Positions 502-62,788 of a stretch of 64,000 nt of DNA are shown one piece after another. The stretch is taken from NCBI GenBank assembly GCA_038087875.1, contig CM075993.1, positions 1,862,001 through 1,926,000 on the forward strand, given 5' to 3'. Both the position numbers and the translations under genes were made by a program. The notes beneath the pieces were generated by a model, which saw nothing but the letters and a program-made list of their open reading frames with translations, did no database searches and had not been told where the DNA came from. The DNA is from Malacoraja senta (Eukaryota). Position 1 is the first letter of the stretch. Each line of letters opens with the position of its first letter.

Positions 502-703
502 AAGACACAAAATGCTGGAGTAACTCAGCGGGACAGGCAGCACCTCTGGAGAGAAGGAATGGGTCAAAGAGTCTGAAGAAGGGTCTCGACCCGAAACGTC
601 ACCCATTCCTTCTCTCCAGAGATGCTGCCTGTCCCGCTGAGTTACTCCAGCATTTCGTGTCCCATCTTCGGTTTAAAACAGCAACTGCAGTTCCTTCCTA
701 CAC
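502..703 (+). mobile_element. Fold-back Penelope-like pLTR-derived element with hammerhead motif
   Basis: About 60-bp inverted arms (504-564 vs 601-661) flank CTGAAGA-AGGGTCTCGACCC-GAAACGTC; similar to the 3' UTR of the PLE fragments at 20300 and 38430. Confidence 0.8.
573..600 (+). ncRNA. Minimal type-I hammerhead ribozyme motif (PLE-associated)
   Basis: CUGAAGA core, extra A, stem II GGGU-CUCG-ACCC, GAAA, palindromic ACGU stem III, GUC triplet; local stem I is only about 2 bp. Confidence 0.6.
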
Positions 704-1375
704 ATGCAGCCCACAATACATGGAGGGAGCCATTTATGCTTAAGTCAGTATATTGTAGTCACGTCTAGATATTTCTAGTTCTTGGAGACTCTTGGATGGA
801 TAGGGCAGGGTTTGGAGGGATCTGGGCCAAATGCAGGCAAATGGGACTAGTGTAGATGGGACATGTTGGCCGGTGTGGACACGTTGGGCTGAAGGGCCCG
901 TTTCCACACTGTTTGACTCCATGACTCTGTGAAGACTCTCATTTTGTTTACATCTCTGAAGTCGAAGGCCCCAAGATGGCACGGGGAAAACTGTGAACTT
1001 CCTCAGGTGTAACCTGCTATTCTTGTTTAAGTTTGATATGCGTTTATGAGTAGTAAGATTTTTACCGAACTGTCTTCACAAAAGTGAATTCCACCGTACC
1101 TAAGTGCATGTGACAATTCAGCAGCATTGAACGTTTATAGATCGTACACACTACAGCCAGGTATCTATGTAGTACTGGTAAAGTGAACTAGCATAGATGG
1201 GTATCTCTGTCAACATAGATGCGTAGGGCCGAACTTACGAACTCTGTACAGACAGCACCCCTGGTCAGGATGAACCCAGGCTCTGGCGTGTGAGGTAGCA
1301 GCTCTACCGCTGCGCCACCATGCCCCCCCCCCACCCCCCCCCCCCCCATCTCTCCACCTCTGTTGGGGATGTGTA

Positions 1376-1822
1376 GATTCAAGATTCAAGAGAGTTTATT
1401 GTCATGTGTCCCAGATAGGACAATGAAATTCTTGCTTTGCTTCAGCACAACAGAATATAGACGTCATTGACTACAAAACAGATCAGTGTGTCCATATACT
1501 ATTGAATATACATACACACACATAAATAAGCAGATAAAGTGCAATAGGCCTATTAAAGTTCAGAGTTTTGTTTGAGTTGAGTTTAATAGTCTGATGGCTG
1601 TGGGGAAGCAGCTATTCCTGAACCTGGTCGTTGCAGTCTTCAGGCTCCTGTACCTTCTACCTGAAGGTAGTGGAGAGATGAGTGTGTGGCCAGGATGGTG
1701 TGGGTCCTTGATGATGCTGCCAGCCTTTTTGAGGCAGCGACTGCGATAGATCCCCTCGATGGTGGGGAGGTCAGAGCCGAGGATGGACTGGGCAGTGGTC
1801 ACAACTTTTTTGCAGTCTTTTC
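1376..1822 (-). mobile_element. Rex1/Babar-type LINE 3' fragment
   Basis: Minus ORF ...TAQSILGSDLPTIEGIYRSRCLKKAGSIIKDPHHPGHTLISPLPSGRRYRSLKTATTRFRNSCFPTAIRLLN, typical of the Rex1 RT C-terminus; (gaatctt)n tail. Confidence 0.85.
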
Positions 1823-2402
1823 CACTCCTGGGCGCAGGAATCGAGTCACTCTCAGTCCTCGGATGCGAATGTGGTGGAACGCGGCTATTAACTGGAACAA
1901 GGATGAGGGAGCGGGTACCGCGGATACTGAGCCCGGCTTCGCACAGAGCAGCCCGACTGGGGCACGGGGATCGGACCCGGGCACTGACCGAACAAGAGTG
2001 GGAGCGGAGCGGCTCCAGTGTGTGGCCCCAGGACACAGAGCAAGGAGACTGATGCTCAGCTCAATATATCCACCCACCCCTCCCCGAACAAATTTCCAGC
2101 ACCAGCGGACACAGATGGGAGAAGAAAGATCATTCAATAATTGCGGTTTTCAAAGAAAATAACAAGTGATTATCAATGTTCTGACACAACGGGGGTGGAG
2201 CACTAAAGGACTCCCCAACGGGGAGAGAGGGAGAGGGAGAGGGAGAGAGCAATCAGTTTACATTGATATTGAACACAGCTGTGTATCTACAGGCCTCACC
2301 CTCTCTTGCTTACATCCACTTTGCCACCCGCCGTTTGATAGCCAGTATAGACCATAGAACATAGAACAGTACAGCACAAGAACAGGCCCTTCGGCCCACA
2401 AG

Positions 2403-2606
2403 ACAGACACAAAATGCTGGAGCAACTCAGCGGGACAGGCAGCATCTCTGGAGAGAAGGAATGGGGCAAAGAGTCTGAAGAAGGTTCTCGACCCGAAACA
2501 TCACCCATTCCTTCTGTCCAGAGATGCTGCCTGTCCCGCTGAGTTACTCCAGCATTTTGTGTCCATCTTCGGTTTAAACCCAGCAACTGCAGTTCCTTCC
2601 TACACA
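2403..2606 (+). mobile_element. Fold-back PLE pLTR-derived element (paralogue of 502-703)
   Basis: Same arms, same 'caaagagtctgaagaa' junction and same downstream unique flank as 502-783. Confidence 0.8.
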
Positions 2607-2626
2607 TGCAGCCCACAATATATGTA

Positions 2627-5371: not shown

Positions 5372-6152
5372 TACATAGATACATAGAAAATAGGTGCAGG
5401 AGTAGGCCATTCGGCCCTTCGAGCCTGCACCGCCATTCAATATGATCATGGCCTGATCATCCAACTCAGTATCCCGTACCTGCCTTCTCTCCATACCCCC
5501 TGATCCCTTTAGCCACAAGGGCCACATCTACACTCCCCTCTTAAATATAGCCAATGAACTGGCCTCAACCTACCCTCTGAGAGAGTTCCAGAGATTCACC
5601 ACTCTCTGTGTGAAAAAGTTTTTCCTCATCTCGGTCTTAAAGGATTTCCCCCTTATCCTTAAGCTGTGACCCCTTGTCCTGGACTTCCCCAACATCGGGA
5701 ACAATCTTCCTGCATCTAGCCTGTCCAACCCCATAAGAATTTTGTACGTTTCTATAAGATCCCCTCTCAATCGCCTAAATTCTAGCGAGTATAAGCCAAG
5801 TCTATCCAGTCTTTCTTCATATGAAAGTCCTGACATCCCAGGAATCAGTCTGGTGAACCTTCTCTGCACTCCCTCTATGGCTATAATGTCCTTCCTCAGA
5901 TTTGGAGACCAAAACTGTACGCAATACTCCAGGTGTGGTCTCACCAAGACCCTGTACAACTGCAGTAGAACCTCCCTGCTCCTATACTCAAATCCTCTTG
6001 CTATGAAAGCCAACATACCATTCGCTTTCTTCACTGCCTGCTGCACCTGCATGCCAACTTTCAATGACTGGTGTACCATGACACCCAGGTCTCGCTGCAT
6101 CTCCCCATTTCCTAATCGGCCACCATTTAGATAATAGTCTGCCTTCCCGTTT
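5372..6152 (-). mobile_element. CR1-type LINE ORF2 C-terminal fragment and 3'UTR
   Basis: RDLGVMV...KANGMLAFI...LYRVLVRPHLEYCVQFWSP...IEGVQRRFTRLIPG...RGDLIETYKI...TRGHSLRI. Confidence 0.95.
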
Positions 6153-6174
6153 TTGCCACCACTGCCTGCCACCG

Positions 6175-6540
6175 TTGTTAAGGGCTTGGACACACTAGAG
6201 GCAGGAAACATGTTCCCGATGTTGGGGGAGCCCAGAACCAGGGGCCACAGTTTAAGAATAAGGAGTAAGCCATTTAGAACGGAGACGAGGAAACACGTTT
6301 TCTCACAGAGAGTGGTGAGTCTGAGGAATTCTCTGCCTCAGAGGGCGGTGGAGGCAGGTTCTCTGGATGCTTTCGAGCCAGCACCGCCATTCAATGTGAT
6401 CATGGCTGATCATCCCCAATCAGTACCCCGTTCCTGCCTTCTCCCCATATCCCCTGACTCTGCTATATTTAAGAGCCCTATCTAGCTCTCTCTTGAAAGC
6501 ATCCAGAGAACCCGCCTCCACCGCCCTCTGAGGCAGAGAA
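6175..6540. mobile_element. Two inverted CR1 3' fragments
   Basis: Plus-strand KGLDTLEAGNMFP...RVVSLRNSLP abuts a minus-strand CR1 3' end. Confidence 0.75.
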
Positions 6541-7039: not shown

Positions 7040-7665
7040 ACAGACAGAGAGAGGGAGTGTGTGTGTGCGTGTGAGAGAGAGAGTGGGGAGAGAGAGAGTG
7101 TGTGTGTGAGGAGAGAGAGAGTGGGGGAGAGAGAGAGTGTGTGTGTGCGTGTGAGGGAGAGAGAGAGTGGGGAGAGAGAGAGTGTGTGTGTGCGTGTGAG
7201 GGAGAGAGAGTGTGTGAGAGAGAGGGAGAGAGAGAGAGAGAGTGTGTGAGAGAGAGAGAGAATGGGGAGAGAGAGAGTGTGTGAGAGAGAGAGAGAGAGA
7301 GTGTGTGTGTGTGAGGGAGAGAGAGAGAGAGTGGGGAGAGAGAGAGGGAGAGAGAGAGAGAGTGTGTGAGAGAGAGAGAGAGAGAGTGTGTGTGAGAGAG
7401 AGAGAGTGAGAGTGTGTGTGAGAGAGAGAGAGAGTGTGTGTGAGAGAGAGAGAGAGAGAGAGTGGGGGAGAGAGAGAGGGAGGGGGAGGGAGAGAGTGTG
7501 AGAGTGTGAGAATGAGAGAGAGGGGGGGAAGAGAGAGAGAGGGGGGAAGAGAGAGAGAGAGAGAGAGAGGGGGGGAAGAGAGAGAGAGAGGGGGGGGAAG
7601 AGAGAGAGAGAGGGGGGAAGAGAGAGAGAGAGAGGGAGAGAGGGAGAGGGAGAGGAGAGAGAGAA
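7040..7665. repeat. (GA)n/(GT)n compound microsatellite
   Basis: Direct inspection. Confidence 0.95.
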
Positions 7666-7689
7666 AGATTATCGCACTGTAGATTTGGT

Positions 7690-10339: not shown

Positions 10340-10861
10340 ATGGTCTGGGCACCGTGTTATGGGAAAGACGTTGTCAAGCTGGAAAGGGCGCGGAGAAGAT
10401 TTACGAGGATGTTGCCAGGACTAGAGGGTGTGAGCTACAGGGAGGGGTTGGAGCAGGCTGGGACTCTATTCCTTGGAGAGCAGGAGGATGAGGGGGTGAT
10501 CTTATAGAGGTGTTTGAAATCATGAGAGGAATAGATCGGGTAGATGCACAGAGTCTCTTGCCCAGAGTAGGGGAATCGAGGACCAGAGGACATTGGTTTA
10601 AGGTGAAGGGGAAAAGATTTAACAGGAATCTGAGGGGTAACATTTTCATACAAAGGGCGGTGGGTGTATGGGACGAGCTGCCAGAGGAGGTAGTTGAGGC
10701 TGGGACTATCCCAACGTTTAAGAAACAGTTTGACAGATACATGGATAGGACAGGTTTGGAGGGATATGGACCAAACGCAGGCAGGTGGGAGTAGTGTAGC
10801 TGGGACATGTTGGCCGGTGTGGGCAAGTTGGGCCGAAGGGCCTGTTTCCACGCTGTATCAC
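10340..10861 (+). mobile_element. CR1-type LINE 3' fragment (second subfamily; tail shared with V-SINEs)
   Basis: VWAPCYGKDVVKLERARRRFTRMLPG / FEIMRGIDRVD...TRGHWFKVKG; ends 'gggccgaagggcctgtttccacgctgtatc'. Confidence 0.9.
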
Positions 10862-13449: not shown

Positions 13450-13485
<36 letters not shown>

Positions 13486-13523
13486 GTGTATGTGCGTATG
13501 TATATATATATATATATATATAT
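13113..13523. repeat. (TA)/(CA) compound microsatellite
   Basis: Direct inspection. Confidence 0.95.
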
Positions 13524-14952: not shown

Positions 14953-15764
14953 TAAAGATAGACACAAAATGCTGGAGTAACCCAGCGGGACAGGCAACTT
15001 CTCCGGAGAGAAGGGAGGGGGCGACGTTCCGGTTCTTCGGACTGACCAAAAGAGTAATGAGAAACTAATGGAAAGTTGCCCTTTGGAGATGAGAGGATGC
15101 CTGCGGGCCTTTATGCTGTGGATCTACAAGTGTTTTTCTTTATTACTCAATCGGATTCCAACAACAAATGTGTTCTTCCTTGCTCCTTAAAAAGCTTTAC
15201 AGCAGCCAAACCTGCACAACTATTATTACATGGATCATCTTTCCATTATGTCTTAATATATTTGTAAGCACCTCTAGCCAAAGAACATTACTGCAACATG
15301 GGGGAATGAGAACTGGTCCATTGCTTTTTAAGAGGCTAGAGATTGCCTGCAGCATCTGAAGACACTTTTTGGATCATAAGATCATAAGGTCATGAGTGAC
15401 AGGAGCGGAATTAGGCCATTCAGCCCATCGAGTCTGCTCCGCCATTCAATCATGGCTGACCTATCTCCAGCATTTTGTGCCTATCTTCTATACTTCTATT
15501 CTATACTGAGCAACGCTGGCTGATCACCATCCTTGAGAGGGTTTGAGAGTCAAATAGGTCAACACATAGTCTGTGGATAGAGCAGTGTTTAGATACAAAA
15601 TGCTGGAGTAACTCAGCGGGACAGGCAGCATCTCTGGAGAGAAGAAATGGGTGACGTTTCGGGTCGAGACCCTTCTTCAGCCCCGATACGTCACCCATTC
15701 CTTCTCTCCAGAGACACTCCAGCTATTTGTATCTATCTTCGGTTTAAACCTTCTTACACACTTA

Positions 15765-16510: not shown

Positions 16511-16842
16511 TCAGTCTGAAGAAGGGTTTCGGCCCGAAACGTTGCCTATTTCCTTCGCTCCATAGATGCTGCTGCACCCGCTGAGTTTCTCCAGCATTTT
16601 TGTGTACCTGCTGGAGAAACTCAGCGGGTGCAGCAGCATCTATCGAGCGAAGGAAATAGGCAACGTTTCGGCCCGAAACCCTTCCGGGTTTCGTCCCGAA
16701 ACGTTGCCTATTTCCTTCAGGGTTTCGGCCCGAAACGTTACCTATTTCCTTCGCTCCATAGATGCTGCTGCACCCGCTGAGTTTCTCCAGCATTTTTGTC
16801 TACCTTCGATTTTCCAGCATCTGCAGTTCCTGCTTGAACACT
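16511..16842 (+). mobile_element. Composite palindromic PLE-terminus element
   Basis: Forward, inverted, partial and forward pLTR modules; hammerhead motif at 16516-16543; same junctions as 39004-39335 in the opposite orientation. Confidence 0.8.
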
Positions 16843-18536: not shown

Positions 18537-19131
18537 CGAATAAAACAAAGATTCAATCAGCATTAATACAAGCCAATTAATGTTAATTTGCACAAAATGC
18601 TGGAGTAGCTCGGCAGGTCAAGCAGCATCTCTGGTAGAGATGGGTCGGTGACCTTTTGGGTCGGGACCCTTCTTCAGACTGATTGTAGTGGTGGGGGAGA
18701 AAGCTAGAATTTAACTGCAGGGAATTTTAAGCAAAGGTATGAATATTGACTTCTCGAACTTTAAGTAACCCTTACTTTCCCTCTCTCTCTCCATCCCTCC
18801 CCCTTCCCAGTTCTCCGACCAGTCTGAATGTCCTTGTTTCCATTTTATCTCTGTCTGTTTGGTTGCCACCTTCTCCGAGCCAACAATTCTATATTTTCCT
18901 TGATCTTTATATTTTTTTGATGATACAGCGCGGAAATTTTAAACGGAGGCAAAAATGCTGGAGAAACTCAGCGGGTTGAGGCAGCATCTATGGAGCGAAG
19001 GAATAGGTGACGTTTCGGGTCGAGACCCTTCTTCAGAAATTTTAAAGAAATGTTAAAGAAAGCTGTGAATCCAGAACTGGAACAGCACAGGCAATTATCA
19101 CACAGGGAATGCAAGTCAATAGTCCTGCACC

Positions 19132-20202
19132 CACAGCTACATCGATGATTGTTTTGGTGCCACATCCTGCACCCACACACAACTGACTGACTTCATCCGC
19201 TTCACCACCAACTTCCATCCAGCACTCAAATACACCTGGACCATTTCCGACACTTCCCTACCATTCCTTGACCTCACTATCTCCATCGCAGGTGATAGAC
19301 TCCTTACCGACATCCACTACAAACCTACCGACTCCCATGGCTATCTGGACTACACTTCTTCCCACCCTGCTTCCTGTAAGGACTCCATCCCCCACTCCCA
19401 ATTCCTCCGTCTACGCCGCATCTGCTCCCAGGATGAGGCGTTCCACACCAGGGCATCTGAAATGTCCTCATTCTTCAGGGAATGGGGGTTCCCCTCCTCC
19501 ACCATAGATGAGGCTTGCACCAGGATCTCTGCCATACCCCGCAACACTGCTCTCTCTCCCCATCCCCCCACTCACAACAAGGGCAGAGTCCCCCTAGTCC
19601 TCACCTTTCACCCCACCAGCCGTCACATACAACAAGTGATCCTCCGTCAGTTTCGCCACCTCCAACGTGACCCCACCACTCGCCACATCTTCCCATCTCC
19701 CCCTATATCTGCCTTCCGCAAAGACCGCTCCCTCCGTAACTCCCTTGTCAATTCTTCCCTTCCCTCCCATACCACCCCCTCCCCTGGCACTTTCCCTTGC
19801 AACCGCAAGAGATGCAACACTTGTCCCTTCGTCTCCCCCCTCTACTCCATTCAAGGACCCAAGCAGTCGTTCCAGGTGCGACAGAGGTTCACCTGCATCT
19901 CCTCCAACCTCATCTATTGCATCTGCTGCTCTAGATGCCAGCTGATCTACATCGGTGAGACCAAGCGGAGGCTTGGCGATCGTTTCGCCGAACACCTCCG
20001 GTCGGTCCGCAATAACCAACCTGACTTCCCGGTGGCTCAGCACTTCAACTCCCCCTCCCATTCCGTATCTGACCTCTCTGTCCTGGGTCTCCTCCATGGC
20101 CACAGCGAGCAACACCGTAAATTGGAGGAAATGCACCTCATATTCCGCTTGGGCAGTCTACATCCTGGTGGCCTGAACATTGAATTCTCCCAATTCTGCT
20201 AG
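19132..20202 (+). CDS. 5'-truncated Penelope-like (Neptune-type) RT C-terminal half and GIY-YIG endonuclease
   Basis: The frame is open upstream of the tracked ATG at 19462 and includes YIDD (19138-19149), LPFLDL, YKPTD..YLDYTSSHP, SQFLRLRRICS, the Cys linker CNRKRCNTC and NLIYCICCSRCQLIYIGETKRRLGDRFAEH. Confidence 0.9.
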   Translation, partial: HSYIDDCFGATSCTHTQLTDFIRFTTNFHPALKYTWTISDTSLPFLDLTISIAGDRLLTDIHYKPTDSHGYLDYTSSHPASCKDSIPHSQFLRLRRICSQDEAFHTRASEMSSFFREWGFPSSTIDEACTRISAIPRNTALSPHPPTHNKGRVPLVLTFHPTSRHIQQVILRQFRHLQRDPTTRHIFPSPPISAFRKDRSLRNSLVNSSLPSHTTPSPGTFPCNRKRCNTCPFVSPLYSIQGPKQSFQVRQRFTCISSNLIYCICCSRCQLIYIGETKRRLGDRFAEHLRSVRNNQPDFPVAQHFNSPSHSVSDLSVLGLLHGHSEQHRKLEEMHLIFRLGSLHPGGLNIEFSQFC

Positions 20203-20318
20203 CCCTTGCTGTCCCTCCCCTTCATCAGCCATCTGGTTGTCTCCTCCCCTCCCCCAGCCCTCGGGCTCCTCCTCCGCCTTTTTCCTTTTTTCCTTTCTTC
20301 TCCCCACCCCCTATCAGT

Positions 20319-20346
20319 CTGAAGAAGGGTTTCGGCCCGAAACGTT
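20319..20346 (+). ncRNA. Minimal hammerhead ribozyme motif in PLE 3' pLTR (variant B)
   Basis: CUGAAGA-A-GGGU-UUCG-GCCC-GAAA-CG-UU. Confidence 0.6.
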
Positions 20347-20869
20347 GCCTATTTCCTTCGCTCCATAGATGCTGCTGCACCCGCTGAGTTTCTCCAGCAT
20401 TTTTGTGTACCTTCGATTTTCCAGCATCTGCAGTTCCTTCTTTAACACAATAGTATTTGTGGGTTTGGAGGCAAGAGAGAGAGCAGGTTGGCAAATTCCA
20501 ATGTGGTTTCCTTAGATCAGCTGTTTGGGAAATACTGAAAGACTGAATCTCAGATACAGAGTAACAGATGAAAATTACTCAGAAGATTGTTCCTATGGTG
20601 ACTGGGTTTCACCTTATTAAAGGACTTGCAAACAATACTACAATCCAAAGATATAAGCTTTCAGAAAGCCTTATCTGTAAACACATTCTGCAGCAGAGAT
20701 AATGGTTTTAGAAAACACTGCATACATTTGTGTACTCTGCTGCTTCTAAGAATTTCAGAGGCCAATGTTCTATTCATGATCTAATAATTGATTTTCAAAT
20801 GGTCTGACGAGTATCCAGTGGAGACTGTAGTCAAGGCTGTTCACTCTGGATAAAGAGAAATCTATTTTA

Positions 20870-21073
20870 TGCGTAGGAAGGAACTGCAGATATGCTGGTT
20901 TACACCGATGATAGACACAAAATGCTGGAGTAACTCAGCGGGACAGGCGGCTTCTCTGGAGAGAAGGAATGGGTGACGTTTTGCGACGAGACCGTTCTTC
21001 AGACTGAAGAAGGGTCTCGACCCGAAACGTCACCCATTCCTTCTCTCCAGAGAAGCTGCCTGTCCCGCTGAGT
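20870..21073. mobile_element. Fold-back PLE element with back-to-back hammerhead motifs
   Basis: Degenerate minus motif (about 20965-21002) abuts the intact plus motif at 21004-21031 at the symmetry centre. Confidence 0.75.
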
Positions 21074-21970: not shown

Positions 21971-23015
21971 GAAAAAAACCGCAACTAAATGGTGGTAGGT
22001 ATATGGAACGAGCTGTCAAAGGATGCTTCCAAAGACACACTCCAAAGGCGTACAGGTTTGTAGGCTAATTGTCTTGGTAAAATTGTAAATTGGCTCTAGT
22101 GTGTGTAGAATAGTGTTAATGTACAGGGATCGCTGGTCAGCATGGGCTCGGTGGGCCGAAGGACCTGCATCTCTAAACTGGAACTTTCAACCAGAGGGAC
22201 ATGTTTTTGCTGCCAGGTCAAACATAGTACAAGATCACTGATATATAAAAATCAGTTTCCATTTGCACATTGCTCTGGATTGCAATTTAATCTGGTGTGC
22301 TTCATGTTTTCAAACCCCAGGAGAGGGAGATCAAATAATGTTATGCAAATCTAAGTTTATTAAATAGTGTCTAAGTAGCTCCAATCTAGTCAGTGCCCCC
22401 ATGTTTCCTTTACCCTCATTACTTTTTTGCATATCTTTCATTCATGTATTCCATATCTCTCCACATCACCGTCTCCCCTGACTCTCAGTTTGAAGAAGAG
22501 TCTCGACCCGAAACGTCACCCATTCCTTCTCTGCAGAGACGCTGCCTGTCCCGCTGAGTTACTCCAGCTTTTTGCGTCAATCGTTGGTTTAAACCAGCAT
22601 CTGCAGTTCCTTCCTGCACATAATTTGATATATCATAGAAAATAGGTGCAGGAGTAGGCCATTCGGCCCTCCGAGCCAGCACAGCCATTCAATATGTTCA
22701 TGGCTGATCATCCAAAATCAGTACCCCGTTCCTGCTTACCCCCCATATCCCTTGATTCCCTTAGCCCTAAGAGCTAAATCTAACTCTCTCTTTAATATAT
22801 CCTTCCTTCAGGTCTCCCTTCAACCTCTGGCCTTCCAGAGAAAATTATCTGATACTGGATTTTCAACTGCAGGTTATGAGATGGCGAAGGGTTCCCATCT
22901 CTTCAGCAAAGGAGAAGAGTCTCGACCAGAAACGTCACCCATTCCTTCTCTCCAGAGAAGCTGCCCGTCCCGCTGAGTTACTCCAGCTTTTTGCGTCTAT
23001 CTTCAGCAAAGGAGA

Positions 23016-23360
23016 CTCCCCCTCCCATTCCGAATCTGACCTTTCTGTCCTGGGCCTCCTCCATGGCCAGAGTGGGGACCACCGGAAATTGGAGGAGCAG
23101 CACCTCATATTCCGCTTGGGCAGTTTGCACCCCAGCGGTATTAACATCGACTTCTCCAATTTCCAGTAGCCCTTGCTGTCTCCTCTCCTTCTCAGCTCTC
23201 CCTCAGCCCTCTGGTTCCTCCTCTTCCTTTCTCCTTTCTACTCCCCGCACCCCCACCCTACATCAGTCTGAAGAAGGGTTTCGGCCCGAAACATTGCCTA
23301 TTTCCTTCGCTCCATAGATGCTGCTGCACCCGCTGAGTTTCTCCAGCACTTTTGTCGACC
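23016..23360 (+). mobile_element. PLE endonuclease C-terminal fragment and pLTR
   Basis: SPSHSESDLSVLGLLHGQ...RKLEEQHLIFRLGSLHPSGINIDFSNF*, then UTR and a hammerhead-like motif at 23268. Confidence 0.85.
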
Positions 23361-23744
23361 TCCTGTTTAGCATCACCTCAGGCAAGCAGCAACAGAACAG
23401 AGGCGGCGTGTCTGAGAGAACGGAAACAATAGCATAGAGTTCATGAGCATCATTAGGCTTCTCGCAAGCGAGCCAGCATCAGTCAGTACTCTAAATTAAC
23501 CAAGAACACAGGTCGGCAGACCGGAGTCTCAGCTTTGATGCGTTTATCAAAGGCTTTATGGGAAGGAATATCAGGATCAAAGCTAATCGCTGCTATACTC
23601 ACAGCAAAGAAGAGAAAACTAGAGAGGGTATATTTGCAGAAGTAAATCTAAGGAATTTTTGCACTTTGCAACGATAATCTCAACGGCACTCGGATACTTC
23701 AGCGGCATCGGTGAAAACAAAGCGGTCGGGCGGTGAAAGCATAA

Positions 23745-26130: not shown

Positions 26131-27149
26131 TAAACAAAGGGAGGGATACCGTAAGACTTTGATACCGTAACACCTAAATACCTTAAGAGCAGTGTTTAAG
26201 AAGGAACTGCAGATGCTGGAAAATCGAAGGTAGACAAAAATGCTGGAGAAACTCAGCGGGTGCAGCAGCATCTATGGAGCGAAGGAAATAGGCGAGCTGC
26301 ACAACAGATGTCTACCTTAAGAGCAGTATCTTAAGATACCTTAAGAAGATGCTCTGATGGTGAAATCTCGCTGAGGATGGCAGAAATGCGAAGGATGATG
26401 TGTTGGAAGCAACAAAACTGTTGGGTTGTAAGTTGATGACCAGGAGGGAGGGGGGGGGCACTTCATTCTTGCTCTGAATGGGAGCAGAGGGAGGGAAAGA
26501 ATGTTGGCAGCTTAGATCTGTGTGGTATTTTGATGTCAAAACCGTTGTATTTGATATTGAGAATGAGGAATTCTTGGATGTGGATGGAGTTTGGTCTTCA
26601 CAGTAACATCCCCGGGCAAATCAAGAGTTGCAGCAGAAATGTAAGAAAATATGAAAAGCACGGGAGCAAGAAGGGGAAAGAGAATGAGAGAATAAAGAGA
26701 GGGGGGAGTGGTGAGAGGAGGGAAGGAAAGAGAGAAGGCTTGTTGACACAAGGAACTGCAGATGCTGGTTAACAAAAAATGACACAAAGTGCTGGAGTTA
26801 AAGCCCTGTCCCACTGTACGAGTTCATTCAAGAGCTCTCCCTATGGAAGATAGATTGTATTTTTTAAATGTAGTGGTTTGTAAGGGTGCAGATATTGTTC
26901 ACCATCCTCCCACCCAAGATAGGGACATAGACTCATGAGGTCATAGAGCACAGAGCACAGAAAGAGACCTTTCCAACCAATTCATCCATGCCAATGGTTG
27001 GCACGGACTTCGTGGGCCGAAGGGCCTGTTTCCGCAGTATATTTCTAAACTAAAACTAAACTCTCCTGTTAATCTCCATATCCTGCTTTCTTTCTTATAT
27101 CTTTCTTTCCCTCTTTCACTTTCTTTTACTTTCCATCTTTCTCTCAGTT

Positions 27150-28691: not shown

Positions 28692-29215
28692 CAGGTCAGG
28701 CAGCATCTGTGGAGAACATGGATAGGTGACGTTTCACAGAGTGCTGGAGTAACTCAGCGGGTCAGGCAGCATCTGTGGAGAACATGGATAGGTGACGTTT
28801 CACAGAGTGCTGGAGTAACTCAGCGGGTCAGGCAGCATCTGTGGAGAACATGGATAGGTGACGTTTCACAGAGTGCTGGAGTAACTCAGCGGGTGCAGCA
28901 GCATCTGTGGAGCGAAGGAAATGGGCAACCTTTCGGGCCGAAACCCTGAAGGAAATAGGCAACGTTTCGGGCCGAAACCCGGAAGGGTTTCGGGCCGAAA
29001 CGTTGCCTATTTCCTTCGCTCCATAGATGCTGCCGGAACATGGATAGGTGACGTTTCACAGAGGTGCTGGAGTAACTCAGTGGGTCAGGCAGCATCTGTG
29101 GAGAACATGGATAGGTGACGTTTCACAGAGTGCTGGAGTAACTCAGCGGGTCAGGCAGCAACTGTGGAGAACATGGATAGGTGACGTTTCGGGTCGAGAC
29201 CCTTCATCAGACTGA
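28692..29215 (-). repeat. 66-bp tandem array of PLE pLTR fragments with embedded palindromic module
   Basis: Unit gtgctggagtaactcagcgggtcaggcagcatctgtggagaacatggataggtgacgtttcacaga starts at 28741 and 28807, with a partial third start at 28873; hammerhead motif with canonical CUGAUGA on the minus strand at 29183-29210. Confidence 0.85.
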
Positions 29216-34270: not shown

Positions 34271-35413
34271 CCCATCCTAACCAAGAATCTATCTATCTCT
34301 GCCTTTAAAATATCCACTTTATCCTGTATCTGTACACTGTGGACGGCTCGATTGTAATCGTGTATTGTCTTTCCGCTGACTGGTTAGCACGCAACAAAAG
34401 CTTTTCACTGTACCTCGATACACGTGACAATAAACTAAACTGTAACTGAACTCGTCCACATCCAGTTTTGCCCCAGTATCATCAGCATGTTATAAATCTT
34501 AATGCAGTCCCTTCTCGTTCTTTAAAACGCAGTGAATAGAAGCCCAATTATCGTGATTTACCTAATCAGGGAGCTCGCACAGATTTCTGACAATTATTCT
34601 GATGAAGGTAGACAAAAATGCTGGAGAAACTCAGCGGGTGCAGCAGCATCTATGGAGCGAAGGAAACAGGCAACGTTTCGGGCCGAAACCCTTGACATCA
34701 GTTCAACATAAGCAGATTAATAAACGCACTAATATAGCACAGACAAGTTGGTACAATTACATGTTAATATAACCAGTGAAACCCATGAAAATATATAACG
34801 ATAGTATGTTGTTTTTAAGGCACATTTTAGTTCAGTTAACAGTTCCATTAACTGATTGAACGTCTGATTGTCGGAATTACTGATGGACGTAATATTAATG
34901 GTATGACTGACCTGGAAGATTGATAACCTTATATGAAGGAAGATAGACACAAAAAGCTGGAGTAACTCAGCGGGACAGGCAGCATCTCTGGAGAGAAGGA
35001 ATGGGTGACGTTTCGGGTCGGGACCCTTCTTCAGACTGGTTATGGATAAGGGAAAAGAGAGATATAGACGATGATGTAGAGAGATAAGAGTTATTTTGAT
35101 GGGACTAAACACGAGAGGATTCAAAGGGATAGTTGTCCCACTGCGACCCACGTCACTCAGGAAACAGCAGCTCAATTGTTGCCGATGTTGGGGGGAGTCC
35201 AGAACCAGGGGTCACACAGTTTGAGAATAAAGGATAGGCCATTTAGGACTGAGATGAGGAAAAACTTTTTCACCCAGAGAGTTGCGAATCTGTGGAATTC
35301 TCTGCCACAGAAGGCAGTGGAGGCCAATTCACTGGATGTTTCAAGAGAGAGTTAAATTTAGCACTTAGGGCTAAAGGAATCAAGGGATATGGGGAGAAAG
35401 CAGGAACGGGTTA

Positions 35414-36111: not shown

Positions 36112-36584
36112 TGTGTTTAAGAAGGAACTGCAGATGCTGGAAAATCGAAGGTAGACAAAAAGTGCTGGAGAAACTCAGCGGGTGCGGCAGCATCTATGGA
36201 GCGAAGGAAATAGGCAACGTTTCGGGACGAAACGTTGCCTATTTCCTTCGCTCCATAGAAGAAGGGTTTCGTCCCGAAACGTTGCCTATTTCCTTCACTC
36301 CATAGAAGAAGGGTTTCTTCCCGAAATGTTGCCTATTTCCTTCGCTCCATAGAAGAAGGGTTTCGTCCCGAAACGTTGCCTATTTCCTTCACTCCATAGA
36401 AGAAGGGTTTCGGCCCGAAACGTTGCCTATTTCCTTCGCTCCATAGAAGAAGGGTTTCGTCCCGAAACGTTGCCTATTTCCTTCGCTCCATAGAAGAAGG
36501 GTTTCGGCCCGAAACGTTGCCTATTTCCTTCGCACCATAGATGCTGCTGCACCCGCTGAGTTTCTCCAGCACTTTTGTCTACCT
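36112..36584. repeat. PLE fold-back containing six 47-bp tandem units
   Basis: Unit gaagggtttcg[t/g]cccgaaacgttgcctatttccttc[g/a]ctccatagaa starts at 36261, 36308, 36355, 36402, 36449 and 36496. Confidence 0.85.
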
Positions 36585-37916: not shown

Positions 37917-38537
37917 ACAGCCCTTCCAGGTGAGGCAGAGGTTCTCTTGCACCTCCTCCAACCTCATCCACTGTATCCGTTGTTCGAGATGTCGACTCTT
38001 ATACATCGGTGAGACCAAACGCAGACTGGGCGATCGTTTCGCTGAACGCCTCCACTCAGTCCGCCTGAACCAACCTGATCTCCCGGTGGCTAAACATTCT
38101 AATTCCCCTTCCCATTCCCACACTGACCTTTCTGTCCTCGGTCTCCTCCATGTCAGAGTGAGGATAAACGCAAATTGGAGGAACAGCATCTCATATTTCG
38201 CTTGGGCAGCTTCCAGCCCAGTGGTATGAATATTGATCTGTCGAACTTCAGGTAGCCCCGGCATTCCCTCTCTCTCTATCCCTCCCCCACCCAAGACGCA
38301 CCAGCTTCTCGTTCTCACCCAACAAACAGCTAACAATGGTCTGTTTCCTTTATCATTGTAACATCTTTGCATATCTTTCATTCATTGTTCTTTATCTCCC
38401 TACATCACCGTCTATATCTCTCCTTTCCCTAACCAGTCTGAAGAAGGGTCTCGACCCGAAACGCCACCCATTCCTTCTCTCCAGAGATGCTGCCTGTCCC
38501 AGCTGAGTTACTCCAGCATTTTGTGTCTATCTTCGGT
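37917..38537 (+). mobile_element. PLE GIY-YIG fragment and pLTR (second subfamily)
   Basis: RQRFSCTSSNLIHCIRCSRCRLLYIGETKRRLGDRFAE (frameshifted), UTR, hammerhead-like motif at 38438. Confidence 0.85.
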
Positions 38538-39003: not shown

Positions 39004-39335
39004 GTGTTTAAGAAAGAACTGCAGATGCTGGAAAATCAAAGGTAGACAAAAATGCTGGAGAAACTCAGCGGGTGCAGCAGCATCTATGGAGCGAAGGAAA
39101 TAGGCAACGTTTCGGGCCGAAACCCTGAAGGAAATAGGCAACGTTTCGGGACGAAACCCGGAAGGGTTTCGGGCCGAAACGTTGCCTATTTCCTTCGCTC
39201 CATAGATGCTGCTGCACCCGCTGAGTTTCTCCAGCAGGTACACAAAAATGCTGGAGAAACTCAGCGGGTGCAGCAGCATCTATGGAGCGAAGGAAATAGG
39301 CAACGTTTCGGGTCGAGACCCTTCTTCAGACTGAT
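39004..39335 (-). mobile_element. Composite palindromic PLE-terminus element (same as 16511-16842)
   Basis: Same junctions 'ccagcaggtacac', 'gaaacccggaaggg' and 'gaaaccctgaagg'. Confidence 0.8.
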
Positions 39336-53720: not shown

Positions 53721-54712
<992 letters not shown>

Positions 54713-55539: not shown

Positions 55540-55957
55540 GATACGAGTAGAATTAGGCCATTCGGCCCATCAAGTCTACTCCGCCATTCCATCATGGCTG
55601 ATCTATCTCTCCCTCCTAACCCCATTCTCCTGCCTCCTCCCCATAACCTCTGACACCCGTACTAATCAAGAATCTATCTATCTCTGCCTTAAGAATATCC
55701 ACTGACTTGGCCTCCACAGCCGTCTGTGGCAAAGAATTCCACAGATTCACCACCCATTGACCAAAGAAATTCCTCCTCATCTCTTTCCTAAAAGAACGTC
55801 CTTTAACTCTGAGGCTGTGACCTCTAGTCCTAGACTCTCCCACTAGTGGAAACATCCTCTCCACATCCACTCTATCCAAGCCTTTCACTATTCTGTACGT
55901 TTGAATGAGGTCCCCCCCCCTCATTCTTCTAAACTCCAGCGAGTACAGGCCCAGTGC
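55540..55957 (-). mobile_element. CR1-type LINE 3' fragment
   Basis: MRGGDLIQTYRIVKGLDRVDVERMFPLVGESRTRGH. Confidence 0.9.
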
Positions 55958-56231
55958 CTACAAAGGCTCATCCTTCGGCCCACTGAGTCCACGCGGAACA
56001 TCGATCACCCTGGTTCTGTGTTATCCCACAACCTTCACACTCTTTGTGTAAGAAGGAACTGCAGGTGCCGGTTTAAATGGAAGGTAGACACAAAGTGCTG
56101 GAGTAACTGAGCGGGTTAGGCAGCACCTCTGGAGAAAAGGCATGGCCGGCGTTTCGGGTCGAGACCCTTCTTCAGACCGAGACCCATTATCTCTAAAGTA
56201 CACATCCCATGATGCAGCCATAATACCTAGT

Positions 56232-56626
<395 letters not shown>

Positions 56627-59600
56627 CAAGTCAAAACTGCAAACTTTTAATGGATTAAAAAAAAAATTAACACCAAGCTGAAACTCCAAGCATTCAATTG
56701 GAAACTTTGAGCAAAACTTTCGTTTTGTATTCATTTGTGATAGATCTAATAAGTAGAACTTGGAATAAATAACTTGGAACTGAATGTTATTGTTCAATCG
56801 TCTAACAGCCTGAATAAATCTTTTAAACAGAAGCATAGCAGCATAATAAAGTAAACAGTTCAATAATTAATGATCCAGAAATGACTTTTTCTGGATTTTT
56901 TAGCGCATAAAAGGGACATTTAATTTTCCTCCCAATTTGAGTAAGAAAGAGGAAATATCTTAGAGGGTAATTCATAACAATAAGAAATTAGCATTACAAA
57001 TCTATTATTTTTTTAACTTATAGATATAGATAGATAGATATTCTAGACAGTAACTTCGACACAAAATGACTGCATTTACATCAGCCTCTCATCATTAAGA
57101 ATGATGTGATCTTCAGTTTACATTTTCCTCCTGTGGTATACATTGTTAATTATTTAAAAGTGTTTTAAATATTTCAACAAAATTGAATGAATTAGAATTT
57201 TTTTTAATTTTTTTTTAAAGTATTCATCTCATTTTTAGTCATGTAGCTTCATGCTTAAGATCTGCAGGTCACTTCCCGGGAGGATAACAGGGACAACGGA
57301 CAATCTTAACAGGACCTTTCTAAGAAAAATATACCAACTACTTTGGGGACAACACAATGGCTCAGCGGTAGAGTTGCTGCCTTACAGCGCCAGGGACCCG
57401 GGTTCGACCCAAACTCTCGGGTGCTGTCGGATTCTGGAGTACCTCGGTGGGTCAGGCAGCATCTCTGGAGAACACGGATAGGTGGCGTTTTGAGTCAGAA
57501 TACTTCTTCAAACTGAAGCATCACCTAAGTTAGACACCAAATGCTGGAGTAACTCAGCAGGACAGGCAGTATCTCTGGATGGATGGAAGGAATGGGTGAC
57601 GTTTCGGGTCGAGACCCTTCTTCAGACTAAAACTAACCACTGATTGTTGCAAAACCAGAGTTACTTTTATTTGAGAATTGTTTAATATTACACAGATCTT
57701 ATTGAAACATATAAGATTATTAAGGGTTTGGACGCGCTAGAGGCAGGAAACATGCTCCCGATGTTGGGGGGAGTCCAGAATGAGGGGCCACAGTTTAAGA
57801 ATAACGGGTAGGCCATTTAGAACGGAGATAAGGAAAAACTTTTTCAAAGGAAGAGTCGAGACCCTTCTTCTGACAAGACCTGAAACGTCACCCATTCCTT
57901 CTCTCCAGAGATGCTGCCTGACCCGCTTAGTTACTCCAGCACTTTGTGTCTATCTTCGGTGTAAAACAGCATCTGCAGTTCCTTCCTGCACACAGCATCT
58001 CTGGAGAACGTGGATAGGCGATGTTTTGGGTCAGGAAAGGTCCCGCCCCCCCGGAAGGGTCTCGACCCGAAACGTCACCTATTCCCTCGCTCCATAGATG
58101 CTGCCTCACCCGCTGAGTTTCTCCAGCTTTTTTGTCCACCTTCGATTTTTCCAGCATCTGCAGTTCTTTCTTAAACATTTTGTGTGTAGATACATGATCA
58201 GGGAATAAGGTGCAGAAGCCTGAGAGTGGAGGGGAAGAGGCTGTTTTTTGAGTCCGACGTCTCTTCAAGCTGCTTTAGCAATCAGCAGGATCAGAACTAA
58301 CCCTCAGCTGTTGTTCCACGTTCTTGCCCATTGATCCGTTCCCCTAGAGCCCAAAGGTCTAGCGATCTCAAGCCTGAAAACGTTCAAAGATTGCAAAGTC
58401 TTCCTGAGACCGATGAAGAGCTTGTTAACTGTTTGTGGCCAGTCAGGGGATTTTGTTTGCCTTCCTGCATACTAATCATTTACTCTACGTTAGAGGAGCA
58501 GCTTTGAAATGGAACTTCTACACAACATGTCCATGCCGACCATCGATCGCCCGCTCCCACTAGTTCTATGTTATCCCACTTTCTCATCCACTCCCTACAC
58601 ACTTGGGGAAATTGGATCGAGTGGATGTGGAGAGAATGTTTTCACTAGTGGGAGAGTCTAGGACCGGAGGGCATCTCCTCTGAATTAAAGGACGTTCCTA
58701 CAGGAAGGAGATGAAGAGGAATTTCTTTAGTCAGAGGGTGATGAATCTGTGGAATTCTTTGCCACTGAAGGCTGCGGAGGCCAAGTCAGTGGGTATTTTT
58801 AAGGCCGAGAGAGATAGATTCTTGAAGAGTATGGGTGTCAGAGGTTATAGGGAGAAGGCTGGAGAATGGGGTTAGGAGGGAGAGATAGATCAACCATGAT
58901 TGATTGGACTTGATGGGCCGAATGGCCTAATTCTGCTCCTATCACTCATGGCTTATGACAATTTTACAGATGCCAATCAACCTACAAACTCGCACGTCTT
59001 TGGGATATGGGAGGAAACTAGAGCACCCGGAGGAAACCTGCGTCACGGGGAGAAGGTGCAAACTCCACACAGACAGCACCCGTGGCCAGGATCAAACTCG
59101 GGTCTCTGGCGCTGTGAGGCTGTGAGGCTGCAGCTCTCCAGGCTGAGCCCCTTTGCTGTTCATTCTAAATGGACAATCCCTGGTTACAGTCCGTACTGAT
59201 GGACACTGTTTCTCCGATGGAAGTGGGTATGAATCTAGTACAATTTCACCGCCCATTAGACCCGATTTAGAAAATTATATTTATGAATACTTAATCTGAT
59301 TGTGTATCGACCGTTAATATTCCCAATTTAGACGGGCTGTTACATCGATTTGTTTGGAGAATGTCACATTACATGTTTTGTCTTTGTCCGCAAACAGTAT
59401 AAAATCCTTAATATTATTAAAGTTATCGATTCTGAGTCTTGGTGAGTATGCAATTGAAAACAGAGCACCACTATCACCACCTTGCATGGGACCTTCTTTC
59501 AATTCAAGATCATTCCTTCTGTGATGTCAGTAAAACTAACAAAGGTAGACAAAAATGCTGGAGAAACTCAGTGGGACAGGCAGCATCTATGGAGCGAAGG

Positions 59601-59704
59601 AATGGGTGACGTTTCGGGTCGAGACCCTTCTTCAGACTAAAACTAACCACTGATTGTTGCAAAACCAGAGTTACTTTTATTTGAGAATTGTTTAATATTA
59701 CACA

Positions 59705-60075
59705 GATCTTATTGAAACATATAAGATTATTAAGGGATTGGACACGCTGGAGGCAGAAAACATGTTCCCGATGTTGGGGGAGTCCAGAATGAGGGGCCAC
59801 AGTTTAAGAATAAAAGGTAGGCCATTTAGAACGGAGACGAGGAAACACTTTTTCACCCGGATAGTTGTGAGTCTGTGGAATTCTCTGCCTTGGAAGGCAG
59901 TGGAGGCCAATTGTCTGGATGCTTTCAAGAGAGAGTTAGATAGAGCTCTTAAAGATAGCGGAGTCAGGGGATATGGGGAGAAGGCAGGAACGGGGTACTG
60001 ATTGGGGATGATCAGCCATGATCACAGTGAATGGCGGTGCTGGCTCGAGGGCCTAATGGCCTACTCCTATCGTCT
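59705..60075 (+). mobile_element. CR1-type LINE 3' fragment
   Basis: DTLEAENMFPMLGESRMRGHSLRIKG...GYGEKAGTGY and UTR. Confidence 0.9.
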
Positions 60076-61427
60076 ATTAATGGCCGCATTACATTGATAA
60101 TACCAGTGATTTTCTTTGCTGTTAGGTGAAGCTCATTTTCCAGTTATCAAGAGAATTAGGCGCGAGCCTGCCTTGTACCTACGTCGGACAGTGGGAATTT
60201 TCCAAAGCCTGAGCATTTTCGCTGGTGCTCTGCAAAGTGGTCCAGTGTAGAGTTGCTGCCTCACAGCGCCGGCGACCCGGGTTCAATCCTGACCACGGAT
60301 GCCATCCGCACGGAGTTTGTACGTTCTCCCTGTGACCGCGTGGGTTTTCTCCGGGAGCTCCTGGTTTCCTTCCACACTCCAAAGACGTACAGGTTTGTAG
60401 GTTAATTGGCTTGGTGTTAAAGTAAAACTGTCCCTAGTGTGTGTGTGTGTGTAGGGTAGAGTAGAGTCAATGATCGGGGATCGCTGGTCGGTGAGGACCC
60501 GGTGGCCCGTTTCCGCGCTGTATCTTGAAAACTAAACGAAACTATCAAAGCTCACTGCTCCTGCCTTACGCAATACAGCTCACGTTGGTTGCCAATTCGT
60601 TTCGAGTCCAGGGACTCAACAAGAACTGAACAATTACAGGAGGAAAAGATAAAGCTTATTAGTTTTAAAGGGCTGGAACGACTATCAGTCAGTTGCAGTG
60701 ATCGGGGTAATAACACACACACACTGTACCGATGCCATCTAACAGTATGGTACTCTTTTCTGCAAACACTCTCCTACATGTCAGAGAAAACCCACGTGGT
60801 CACGGGGAGAACCTACAAACTCCGTATAGACAGCACCCGTAGTTGGGATCGAACCCGGGTCTCCGGCGCTGCATGCTACCGCTGCGCCACCATGGGCCGA
60901 GTGGCCTGTTTCCACGCTGTATCTCTGAACTAAACTAAACTAAAGATGGGCACAATTCTTGCCTATCATTGTCCACACTTAAACGCAGTGAATGTTTGGG
61001 ATTTCAACTTACTGAGGGGAAGACAGCAGTTGGTTTAAACTTTGGCTAAGCAAATACAGTATAAATAGTTTAGTTTAGTTTATTGTGAAAAGCTTTTTGT
61101 TGAGTGCTATCCAGTCAGCTAAAACACCATACATGGTTACAATCGAGTCGTCCACAGGTGGAGAGTCTCGACCCGAAACGTCACCCATTCCGTTCTCTCC
61201 AGAGATGCTGCCTGTCCCGCTGAGTCACTCCACCATTTTGTGTCTGTCTTCGGTTGAAACCAGCATCCGCAGTTCCTCACTACACATTGACCATTGAATA
61301 TTGAGGAGAACGTGCAAACTCCACAAAGGCAGCGGAGGTCAGGTTTGAACCATCCCAACAGCAACATTAGCTGTATCACTGTACGACCCAGTACAGCCCA
61401 TAGTACGGGATGTTTCACAATTCAATA

Positions 61428-61730
61428 GTTTAGTTTGGAGACACAGCGCGGAAATCCTTCGGCCCACCGAGTCCGCACCAACCAGCGACCCCCGCACATT
61501 AACACTATCCTACACACTAGGGACAATTTATATTTTATACCGAAGCCAATTAACTTGAAAACTTGCACGTCTTTGGAGTGTGGGAGGAAACTGAACATCT
61601 CGGAGAAAACCCAGGCAGGTCACGGGGAGATCGTGCAAACTCCGCACAGACAGCTCCTGCGGTCGGGATCGAACCTGGGTCCCCGGCGCTGTGAGGCAGC
61701 AACTCTACTGCTGCGCCACCGTGCTGCCCT
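61428..61730 (-). mobile_element. V-SINE (HE1-like)
   Basis: Full-length reverse copy. Confidence 0.85.
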
Positions 61731-62093
61731 AGTCCAGCAACTTAATCTTTGCATCTCCATCACTATAACTTACGCAAAAGAATAAATACATCATAAATGA
61801 TAGTACAATATAAACTTCCCCGACTAAATATATAAAATACCTATTCTCTATAAAGATGATATTCTGTCCCTCAGGCATAACACCAATTTAAAACATTCAA
61901 TATTTATACAAGCAATTGATTCACAACTATTCAAATCTATACAGACTAAATTGATCTGGAAGTGAAATACTGCAGCTGATGGCATTTTCTAAAAGTCATT
62001 TTCAGGATCTGGGGTTTTTGTTGCTAAGCCAGCATTTATTGCCATTCCCTGTATGATCTTGTGAATCTGATGCTGGGCCAACTTAGTCCGAGA

Positions 62094-62490
62094 GTAGGCT
62101 TGCCAACTTTCTCGCTCCCAAATAAGGGACAAAAGGTCAAAACACGGGACAAATTCCCGACGGCAATTCGTTGACCGACTGGGCCGTGGCTGGGTGAATG
62201 ACGAGTTGGCCCGGGTGCTGGACTGCACACAAAGCCCAGCCGGCGGGGCCAGCTGGGGAGTTTGGGCCGGGCCGGGCGATGTCGCTCGCCCCACCCAACT
62301 CATGAACCGATGATCGGCCGTGAGAAGGAGGGGTGATGATGTTGGCGGTTAGCGAAGGACGGACAGCTGGCCGGGCTGCCGACCGACCGACGGGGCCACA
62401 GGCGAGGTGCTGCTGCTGCACTCCATGGGCTGCACAACGTCGGGACGGGTGAGGCGGGGCCGGACGTGACCCTCCGACCCGACAGTCCCC
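62094..62490. mobile_element. Possible hAT-type MITE left end (GC/CpG-rich)
   Basis: Starts TAGGCTTGCCAAC (resembles TAGGGTTGCCA hAT termini) with repeated GGGACAAA; no matching right TIR seen. Confidence 0.35.
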
Positions 62491-62788
62491 CTAACAGATT
62501 TCAAAGGAGAAGGGAGGACACCCAGAAGGCAATGTCCACAAGGCTACAAGGAGCAATGATCATTTCAGATTCTGATATCTCGACTTATTTTGCTTTTGAC
62601 TTAATAGATTCCTGGATTGATTAAGCGATGGAGACTTTCAGTCTGAAGAAAGGTCTCGACCCGAAACGTCACCCATTCCTTCTCCCCAGATATGCTGCCT
62701 GTCCCGCTGAGTTACTCCAACTTTATGTGTGTCTGTAAGGGATGAAGACAAGCAGGCTCAACTTCAAAGTTAAAAGTGGGAGGTTTAA

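Follow-up and report, generated by a model that had tools for sequence, protein, structure and literature searches.

Minimal hammerhead ribozymes are known from the pseudo-long terminal repeats (pLTRs) of metazoan Penelope-like elements (PLEs), including Xena, Poseidon and Neptune elements of fish, where they are dispersed in thousands of copies (Cervera and de la Pena 2014, PMC4209133). The motif class and its pLTR arrangement have thus been known since 2014. The role of PLE hammerheads is described as unclear (PMC8557442). In an anole PLE the hammerhead needs protein in order to cut, and insertion in vitro does not depend on it; reverse transcriptase (RT) starts within the RNA, at two sites, which define the tail of that element (PMC11167929). 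For PLEs at large, truncated copies, solo pLTRs and inverted junctions that involve palindromes have been described (PMC3846280, PMC8557442). Only Neptune and Poseidon have been reported among vertebrate PLEs, and a survey of retrozymes included one chondrichthyan species (bioRxiv 10.64898/2026.07.22.740005). Here we analyse 64,000 nucleotides of the skate Malacoraja senta (GCA_038087875.1, contig CM075993.1, positions 1,862,001 to 1,926,000 of the forward strand; hereafter the window), in which an initial annotation had noted a family of hammerhead motifs on Penelope-derived termini. We favour, with a probability of roughly 0.6, a reading in which hammerheads in the pLTR of a young Neptune-type PLE cut slowly as protein-assisted dimers, while the short copies of the element arise by RT starting inside the RNA and running off at the edge of the motif.

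The young form of the element is represented in the window by a plus-strand frame at 19123-20202, the 3' third of a PLE open reading frame (ORF). The 5'-truncated ORF proper (19136..20202) covers the end of the RT core, the thumb, a CX4CXXC zinc linker, the GIY-YIG domain (Pfam E 4e-4) and the stop codon, with 98% DNA identity to full-length copies; its C-terminal 146 aa gave 98,078 candidates in a first look at the genome, the best 150 of them at 95-100% identity. A pyrimidine-rich untranslated region (UTR; 20203..20318) ending in TCAGT, which is kept across subfamilies, leads to an intact hammerhead at 20319..20346, its start 116 nt 3' of the stop codon and its predicted cut after 20346. The remainder of the pLTR unit (20347..20448) has two preferred 3' ends, at unit positions ~93-96 and ~128-131, with the PLE 'tail' between them. 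We number the unit from C3 of the CUGA box as position 1, so that U2.1 is 0 and the predicted cut falls after position 28, and we call the young form (UUCG loop, GUU) family A and the older forms (CUCG, GUC) family B.

Elsewhere in the genome, a complete copy at locus L021 consists of a pLTR, an ORF of 1,221 aa and a second pLTR, with hammerhead motifs at 3223 and 7167, 3,944 nt apart, on both sides of the ORF. This ORF has DKG and YIDD motifs, the CX4CXXC linker (residues 1088-1096) and GIY-YIG; its Pfam matches to RVT_1 (E 5.9e-6) and GIY-YIG (E 0.0022) both fall under the curated cut-off, and a PDB search with the ORF gave no match. Open frames of at least 1,186 aa were found in 27 of the 150 listed N-terminal matches, and their length varies among copies from 1,186 to 1,302 aa. 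Some copies stand head-to-tail at 3,996-3,997 bp (~4.0-kb tandems), the first ATG of the next copy lying 163 nt after C3. The features of endonuclease-bearing PLEs are present: partial tandems forming pLTRs, inverted 5'-truncated copies, a 30-40-bp tail and target-site duplications. The element is a young, very abundant PLE and likely of Neptune type, a label chosen because the CX4CXXC linker is common to Neptune and Nematis and lacking in Penelope and Poseidon. The PLE origin, the pLTR position and the minimal type-I architecture with a palindromic ACGU stem III, all proposed at the outset, are borne out; the placement in the 3' UTR is right in that the motif follows the ORF stop, but the same region doubles as the 5' leader of the next tandem copy.

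Several further observations concern the element itself. In the L021 ORF, a long proline/histidine-rich, internally repeated insert of variable length occupies residues ~150-500, between the N-terminal domain and the RT. A short upstream ORF (3273-3400 of L021) begins in the pLTR, overlaps the main ATG and ends just after it. At that ATG there is also a strong splice-donor-like site, for which no acceptor was found; a second intron from AAG/GTATG at the first ATG was dropped, the candidate acceptor reading CAA in all 30 near-full-length loci. By contig depth, which is a weak measure, the family-A UTR (20134-20250) is deep in run X19 and shallow in runs X1, X3 and X6, and the hammerhead unit is deep in all four; on this measure the unit seems common to different organisms and the young UTR restricted to one lineage.

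A generic minimal-hammerhead descriptor (CUGANGA, stem II, GAAA, palindrome, UH), which does not use the family's own sequence, identified 11 intact motifs in the window; 100 dinucleotide shuffles of it yielded 0.07 on average and at most 1. They start at 573, 16516, 20319 and 21004 on the plus strand and at 15680, 19036, 29210, 35034, 39329, 57625 and 59635 on the minus strand. The 14 sites listed by the initial annotation all exist, positions and strands included, and the three it called mutated are so (23268 at 16.2, 38438 at U16.1, 62643 at G10.1), but the list is an undercount: a loose pattern gives 36 matches, and BLAST with two window-derived references finds 91 segments of the ~130-bp unit between 493 and 63558 (44 plus, 47 minus; 7,856 bases summed; 18 head-to-head inverted pairs), most of them 5'-truncated. 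Several copies in the window prove to be local duplicates (573/2475, 57625/59635) and not independent insertions. Loop and triplet are not strictly coupled in the two variants, since 39302-39329 combines CUCG-ACCC with GUU, and the CUGAUGA singled out at 29183 is present but changes only the free position N7, as in 5 of 116 copies.

The same descriptor found 33 intact motifs, all of this one family, in a genome sample of 60 evenly spaced 10-kb loci (598.8 kb), with 0, 0, 0, 0 and 1 in five shuffles. The sample holds 213 unit segments, or 3.3% of its length, the window being ~4 times denser; together the two sets make up the 304 segments analysed below, and extrapolation would give ~0.7 million segments genome-wide. 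The 1.94-Gb genome contains 44,606 matches to the exact pattern and none to its reverse, and 19,101 of the family-A motifs are identical from position 1, in keeping with the very high copy number first proposed. In an Rfam scan of the window at E<=5, no hammerhead family appeared among 74 matches, as expected for minimal forms; the matches are microsatellite and hairpin noise below gathering scores, most of it from very long GT, GA, TC and AT microsatellites at 53725-54711, 7073-7668, 27150-27644 and 13112-13524.

By its sequence features the motif is a minimal type-I hammerhead. The CUGANGA and GAAA boxes and the UH cleavage triplet occur in type-I order; helix II has 4 bp with G10.1-C11.1 (95.6% of cells paired), an extra A follows A9 in 111/116 copies, and there is no loop 3, the palindrome ACGU (15.2-16.2) being kept in 11/11 intact window copies and in 22/23 upstream pLTRs. 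Helix I has 2 bp in 26/33 sampled-locus motifs, and no distal extension of it is supported by folding; the initial estimate of about 2 bp fits 8 of the 11 intact window copies, but one has 1 bp and two have none. In a comparison of 21 older ORF-linked copies with one young copy (one chimeric row dropped), identity at 11 core positions was 97.8% (226/231), a figure biased upward in that the older copies were picked by similarity to the motif and ORF ends lacking a motif within four errors were not counted; the 28-nt motif scored 83.5%, the UTR 54% and ORF third positions 48%. Position by position in 116 spanning copies, non-CpG core positions average 0.96 against 0.87 for positions 31-88 (p 7e-5), with positions 1-4 inflated by the mode of copy choice. 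G12 lies in a CpG and is changed in 28% of these copies, which argues that inserted copies decay neutrally. A second strongly conserved block, at unit positions 64-79 (window 20382-20398; about 0.95), folds as a small hairpin and is a candidate protein-binding or RT-start signal. If this hammerhead cuts, it probably does so slowly and as a dimer helped by protein; the literature describes weak or protein-dependent cleavage for minimal hammerheads (PMC4209133, PMC11167929, bioRxiv 10.64898/2026.07.22.740005, PMC6765202).

Copying of cut RNA would be expected to leave a pile of 5' ends at position 29. Genome-wide, a family-A anchor has 30,294 exact matches when it reaches to position 31, 29,582 when it reaches to 29 and 28,950 when it reaches to 27, so that 2.35% are lost ahead of the bond and 2.14% across it. 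For family A we therefore reject, genome-wide, the idea that cleavage has left its mark as 5' ends at this bond: ~98% of its copies read through the predicted cut, and because of this the templates must have been uncut or re-ligated. Locally, 10/304 segments begin at positions 28-30, two of them being deletions between ACCC repeats and two a single duplicated event; a young solo unit (98%) at 26191..26293 on the minus strand, with its 5' end exactly at the predicted cut site, is a rare case. Separately, a tandem array at locus L171 (C1:3.87-4.04 Mb) repeats with a ~2.45-kb period, each unit a family-A pLTR with U16.1 changed to A, and its drop-out at the cut site is this point change and not a junction.

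This lack of a footprint at the cut is what a catalytically silent relic would leave, a ~130-bp unit kept as promoter and protein-binding site that carries the hammerhead consensus along with it. A stem I of 2 bp and a monomer predicted to misfold would also suit a relic, as would the anole PLE, where catalytic mutants had no effect on insertion and no RNA-seq ends were reported at the cut (PMC11167929), and the finding that 8 of 9 tested dimers did not cut (bioRxiv 10.64898/2026.07.22.740005). Against this stands the retention of 11 catalytic positions, the extra base, G10.1-C11.1 and ACGU while about half of the ORF third positions changed, and the changes seen in stems I and II stay paired by wobble. 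We regard a mere relic as rather improbable.

The position at which copies do end lies at the other side of the motif. Exact family-A matches beginning at positions 9, 1 and -5 fall from 28,303 to 19,101 to 9,376 genome-wide, a loss of 67% over 14 nt where ~15% would be expected from the rate in the cut-site region. Of the first 100 listed places, we took the 50 in which the six upstream bases are missing (48 loci, all within the first 10.3 Mb of contig 1); these junctions end 0, 1, 2, 3, 4 and 5 nt upstream of C3 in 7, 7, 15, 8, 3 and 10 cases, at least one (L165) being a point change and not a junction. Target-site duplications of 7-21 bp flank 27 of the 50, against a mean of 0.73 and a maximum of 4 in a mismatched control, and no clear microsatellite target was seen among them. 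Inversions mark 13/50 junctions, and 4/50 re-copy the first bases of the motif, as expected of jumps at a template end. Similarly, in the 60 sampled loci, the interval from -5 to +12 holds the 5' ends of 97 of the 157 segments that reach position 12, a count perhaps inflated for old copies by missing UTR references. The pile is equal in short-ended (42/108) and tail-ended (43/102) segments, and is thus fixed by position, not by length. In contrast, the upstream motif is contained in 23 of the 30 best near-full-length loci, and not one of these upstream pLTRs stops at the motif's edge: all 23 run at least 27 nt past it, the nearest end lying at -27 and nine reaching beyond the locus's 1.5-kb edge, while the other seven loci end downstream of the motif's 5' half. 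At a pass rate of ~0.39 the contrast has p ~4e-10 if loci are independent, which some are not. At two different PLE copies (L098 and L041), the 40 nt upstream of the 5' junction are identical, pointing either to insertion at the same site of another repeat or to a common origin.

We infer from this boundary that transcription probably starts near the conserved TCAGT, a sequence that fits the initiator consensus YYANWYY, and that two classes of template are at work. The element protein would bind downstream of the tail and prime at a nicked target, and the RT would start within the RNA at 93-96 or 128-131 and copy back through an uncut hammerhead. On an RNA beginning near TCAGT it would run off and leave a ~95-135-bp solo unit, a snap-back or short jump sometimes preceding completion, and most copies would then be short dead inserts produced when RT began 93-131 bases downstream of it. 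With tandem read-through RNA or re-ligated circles as template, the enzyme would go on into the preceding ORF, giving long copies whose pLTRs can have any length. A minority of tandem transcripts would be cut into ~4-kb units by the hammerhead acting as a dimer.

The main rival to this run-off account is a structure-induced early stall, in which the pile reflects RT stalling or snap-back of the complementary DNA (cDNA) at local structure, acting only before the enzyme becomes processive, with no RNA 5' end at that place. The palindromes TCAG-T-CTGA and GTTTCG-GCC-CGAAAC, or the G-rich cDNA of the pyrimidine tract, could supply such structure. The spread of the 5' ends, which are not sharp, suits a stall, as do the 13 inverted junctions and the excess of head-to-head over tail-to-tail inverted pairs (49 against 7 among the 304 segments), many of which pivot on motif palindromes, five at position 11 and several at -2 to 0. 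On the other hand, 37 of the 50 junctions are not inverted, 26 of those with plain duplications; the stop zone stays put when the start site changes; and the RT passes the whole predicted structure before stopping. A stall is accordingly a serious possibility that we nevertheless hold to be improbable. Somewhat less probable still, in our view, is a variant in which the RNA begins at the front edge of the hammerhead, so that the solo pLTRs, tens of thousands in number, are strong-stop-like products, and full-length copies come from hammerhead-cut, re-ligated ~4-kb circles, which would explain why they do not stop there.

The sequence ahead of the motif can also be read as an intron, running from a GT at the ORF stop codon to the CAG before helix I, whose splicing would set the 5' context of the motif as in the Penelope of Drosophila virilis, where the intron ends at the 5' end of helix I (PMC4209133). 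In the 21 older copies, GT overlaps the stop in 13 and CAG precedes U2.1, after a pyrimidine tract, in 17. The young active family has no GT at the stop, however, and splicing would not lengthen stem I; moreover, what lies upstream of short copies is target DNA carrying duplications, not an exon common to them. The joined form has no genomic match at 1 mismatch, which weighs little since PLEs keep introns. In four contig runs, none of the 15 joints listed crosses the UTR, which speaks neither for nor against splicing. We consider the intron quite unlikely, on a par with the relic.

The dominance of solo ~95-135-bp inserts with duplications, and the existence of 47-bp and 66-bp tandem runs, could suggest that the short units are an independent non-autonomous family, a short interspersed element (SINE) or a retrozyme, propagating from its own RNA. 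Ragged 5' ends without a fixed head speak against it, as does the match of solos to subfamilies of the autonomous element, and the tandem runs lack the two complete units of the retrozyme rule (bioRxiv 10.64898/2026.07.22.740005). In the window, the 47-bp array (36228..36541, plus strand, 6.7 copies) repeats unit positions 3-51 and, being without C3-U4, contains no complete hammerhead; the 66-bp runs (28694..29190, minus strand, with 34-bp re-copies and a matching cluster at 44108-44571) repeat about positions 21-80 without the CUGA box. This explanation is largely refuted and we give it very little credence.

Several points weigh against the combination of slow hammerheads and run-off at the motif edge that we prefer. 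The 60 nt downstream of the motif are also conserved at 86-88%, which suggests that the unit is under selection for more than a ribozyme; the conservation of the core, real against the UTR and the ORF third positions, is to that extent not peculiar to it. The covariation sought by the initial annotation did not appear, two-sided changes being seen in 0/6 pairs and one-sided changes in 2 (17 distinct rows), which probably counts little against pairing because the family is too homogeneous. For the family-A monomer the predicted probability of stem II is ~0, since positions 6-11 are predicted to pair with 36-41, and the bare dimer fold is modelled at ~-13 kcal/mol, whereas the best dimer fold reaches -27 to -31 with the shortest fragments. 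The label 'ribozyme-bearing' holds at the level of sequence, and the predicted misfolding, the lack of two-sided covariation and the missing cut-site footprint limit it. Furthermore, the 5' ends spread over six positions without a sharp start site, and another third of the copies stop somewhere in positions 1-8. Full-length copies should end at the edge too if edge-starting RNA were the main template; because 0/23 do, a second, putative template class would be needed. Finally, the clade assignment rests on a linker motif and not on a tree.

Beyond the young copy, the window holds motifs in many states of preservation. On the plus strand, the intact family-B motif at 573..600 has in front of it an inverted copy (493-564) that begins at the cut-site position, a junction found only here and in the duplicate at 2475; the idea that this inverted copy lengthens helix I was set aside, its 2 matches genome-wide both lying in the window and not making a family. 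An intact family-A motif (16516..16543) sits inside a complex direct/inverted cluster (16472-16848), and an intact family-B core without stem I (21004..21031) forms part of the right arm of a fold-back pair (20874-21074). On the minus strand, intact family-B cores lie at 15653..15680, with a 5' junction at C3 and hence no stem I, and at 19009..19036, 5'-truncated at the motif edge; intact motifs lie at 29183..29210 (N7=U, at the head of the 66-bp run), 35007..35034 (family B, loop change), 39302..39329 (the intermediate subfamily with CUCG-ACCC and GUU), 57598..57625 (family B, a local duplicate of the next) and 59608..59635 (family B). Older PLE 3' ends on the plus strand comprise ORF end, UTR and mutated motif (23015..23361, motif 23268-23295) and, in family B, ORF end, a 185-nt UTR and mutated motif (37918..38537, motif 38438-38465), and a plus-strand solo unit (62640..62730) carries the mutated motif 62643-62670. 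Two features were absent from the initial annotation: the duplicate of the 493-700 inverted pair at 2406..2602 (mutated motif 2475-2502) and a minus-strand solo unit at 56049..56177 (motif 56148-56175, mutated at U16.1).

Two local duplications spaced ~1.9-2.0 kb apart, 493-700 / 2406-2602 and 57533-57628 / 59553-59638, explain why the motif pairs in them are not independent insertions. Four clusters (16472-16848, 39003-39343, 28874-29033, 44174-44333) have one complex junction, with positions 6-81 inverted, a 34-bp re-copy and then position 8 onward, which suggests one rearranged master copied again or local duplication. Several hammerhead units sit inside fragments that we take to be C-termini of the RT of CR1-like long interspersed elements (LINEs), at 5570-6337 (minus strand), 10492-10794, 29838-30140, 47929-48423, 55616-55957 and 59696-60001; the one tested gave no Pfam match. 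A 248-aa plus-strand frame at 41942-42688, presumably the end of an L2-type LINE ORF2, likewise gave none. A second very abundant short repeat, at 21071-21356 and ~25 other places in the window, is likely a SINE with a tRNA-like head on the opposite strand, and is a frequent target of the PLE unit. Seven non-repeat ORFs of the window had no Pfam match, and no host gene was identified among them.

With its 19,101 identical motifs and dozens of intact ORFs, this young family allows the question of what PLE hammerheads do to be approached by counting. The count gives a contrast: cut RNA leaves no trace among insertions, while a boundary at the 5' edge of the motif ends two thirds of the copies and none of the 23 long ones. 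Were the circle variant true, it would support, from genomic data, the model in which PLEs transpose by way of a circular template, and would assign the minimal hammerhead a function. Moreover, with the unit occupying ~3.3% of sampled loci, even rare cleavage could touch many host transcripts.

Compared with the minimal hammerheads described before (PMC4209133), the skate motif has the same type-I order, lack of loop 3, palindromic 15.2-16.2, single extra base between A9 and G10.1, and G10.1-C11.1, as well as one motif per pLTR with most copies single and dispersed. Stem II has 4 bp here, in difference from those forms, and stem I has 2 bp, as in D. virilis, against 4-5 bp in Schistosoma mansoni. 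The 44,606 exact copies form one homogeneous family, compared with ~4,000 motifs in coelacanth and ~9,000 in Xenopus tropicalis, counts obtained by different methods. With PAc, the Poseidon PLE of Anolis carolinensis (Frangieh et al. 2024, PMC11167929), it shares two preferred 3' ends around a tail downstream of the hammerhead, tandems, and agreement on uncut RNA as template; however, the PAc ORF starts inside stem II whereas the first ATG here lies 163 nt after C3, the zinc linker is absent from Poseidon, and in the accessible text on PAc we found no description of a 5'-end pile at the motif edge. The Neptune clade (Craig et al. 2021, PMC8557442) has the same C-terminal GIY-YIG, CX2-5CxxC linker, DKG motif, partial tandems, inverted 5'-truncated copies and 30-40-bp tail, whereas no clear microsatellite target is seen among the 50 junctions here. 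D. virilis Penelope (Schostak et al. 2008, PMC2377424) likewise has a pyrimidine tract and AG ahead of helix I, and its TATA-less internal promoter with a start site in the pLTR may be likened to the start proposed here; that start lies 46 bp upstream of a 75-bp intron ending at helix I, whereas the RNA end proposed for the skate falls at helix I itself. Animal non-LTR retrozymes (Li et al., bioRxiv 10.64898/2026.07.22.740005) are also pLTR-derived, hammerhead-bearing and present as many monomers, but no tandem run in the window contains a complete hammerhead, and the units derive from an autonomous element by truncation. In a literature search of sources other than subscription papers, Repbase/Dfam and supplements, we found no prior report of the 5'-edge pile or its absence in long copies, nor of chondrichthyan PLE hammerheads with such a pile. 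The skate family belongs to a known hammerhead-PLE arrangement and has an unusually large and young copy set.

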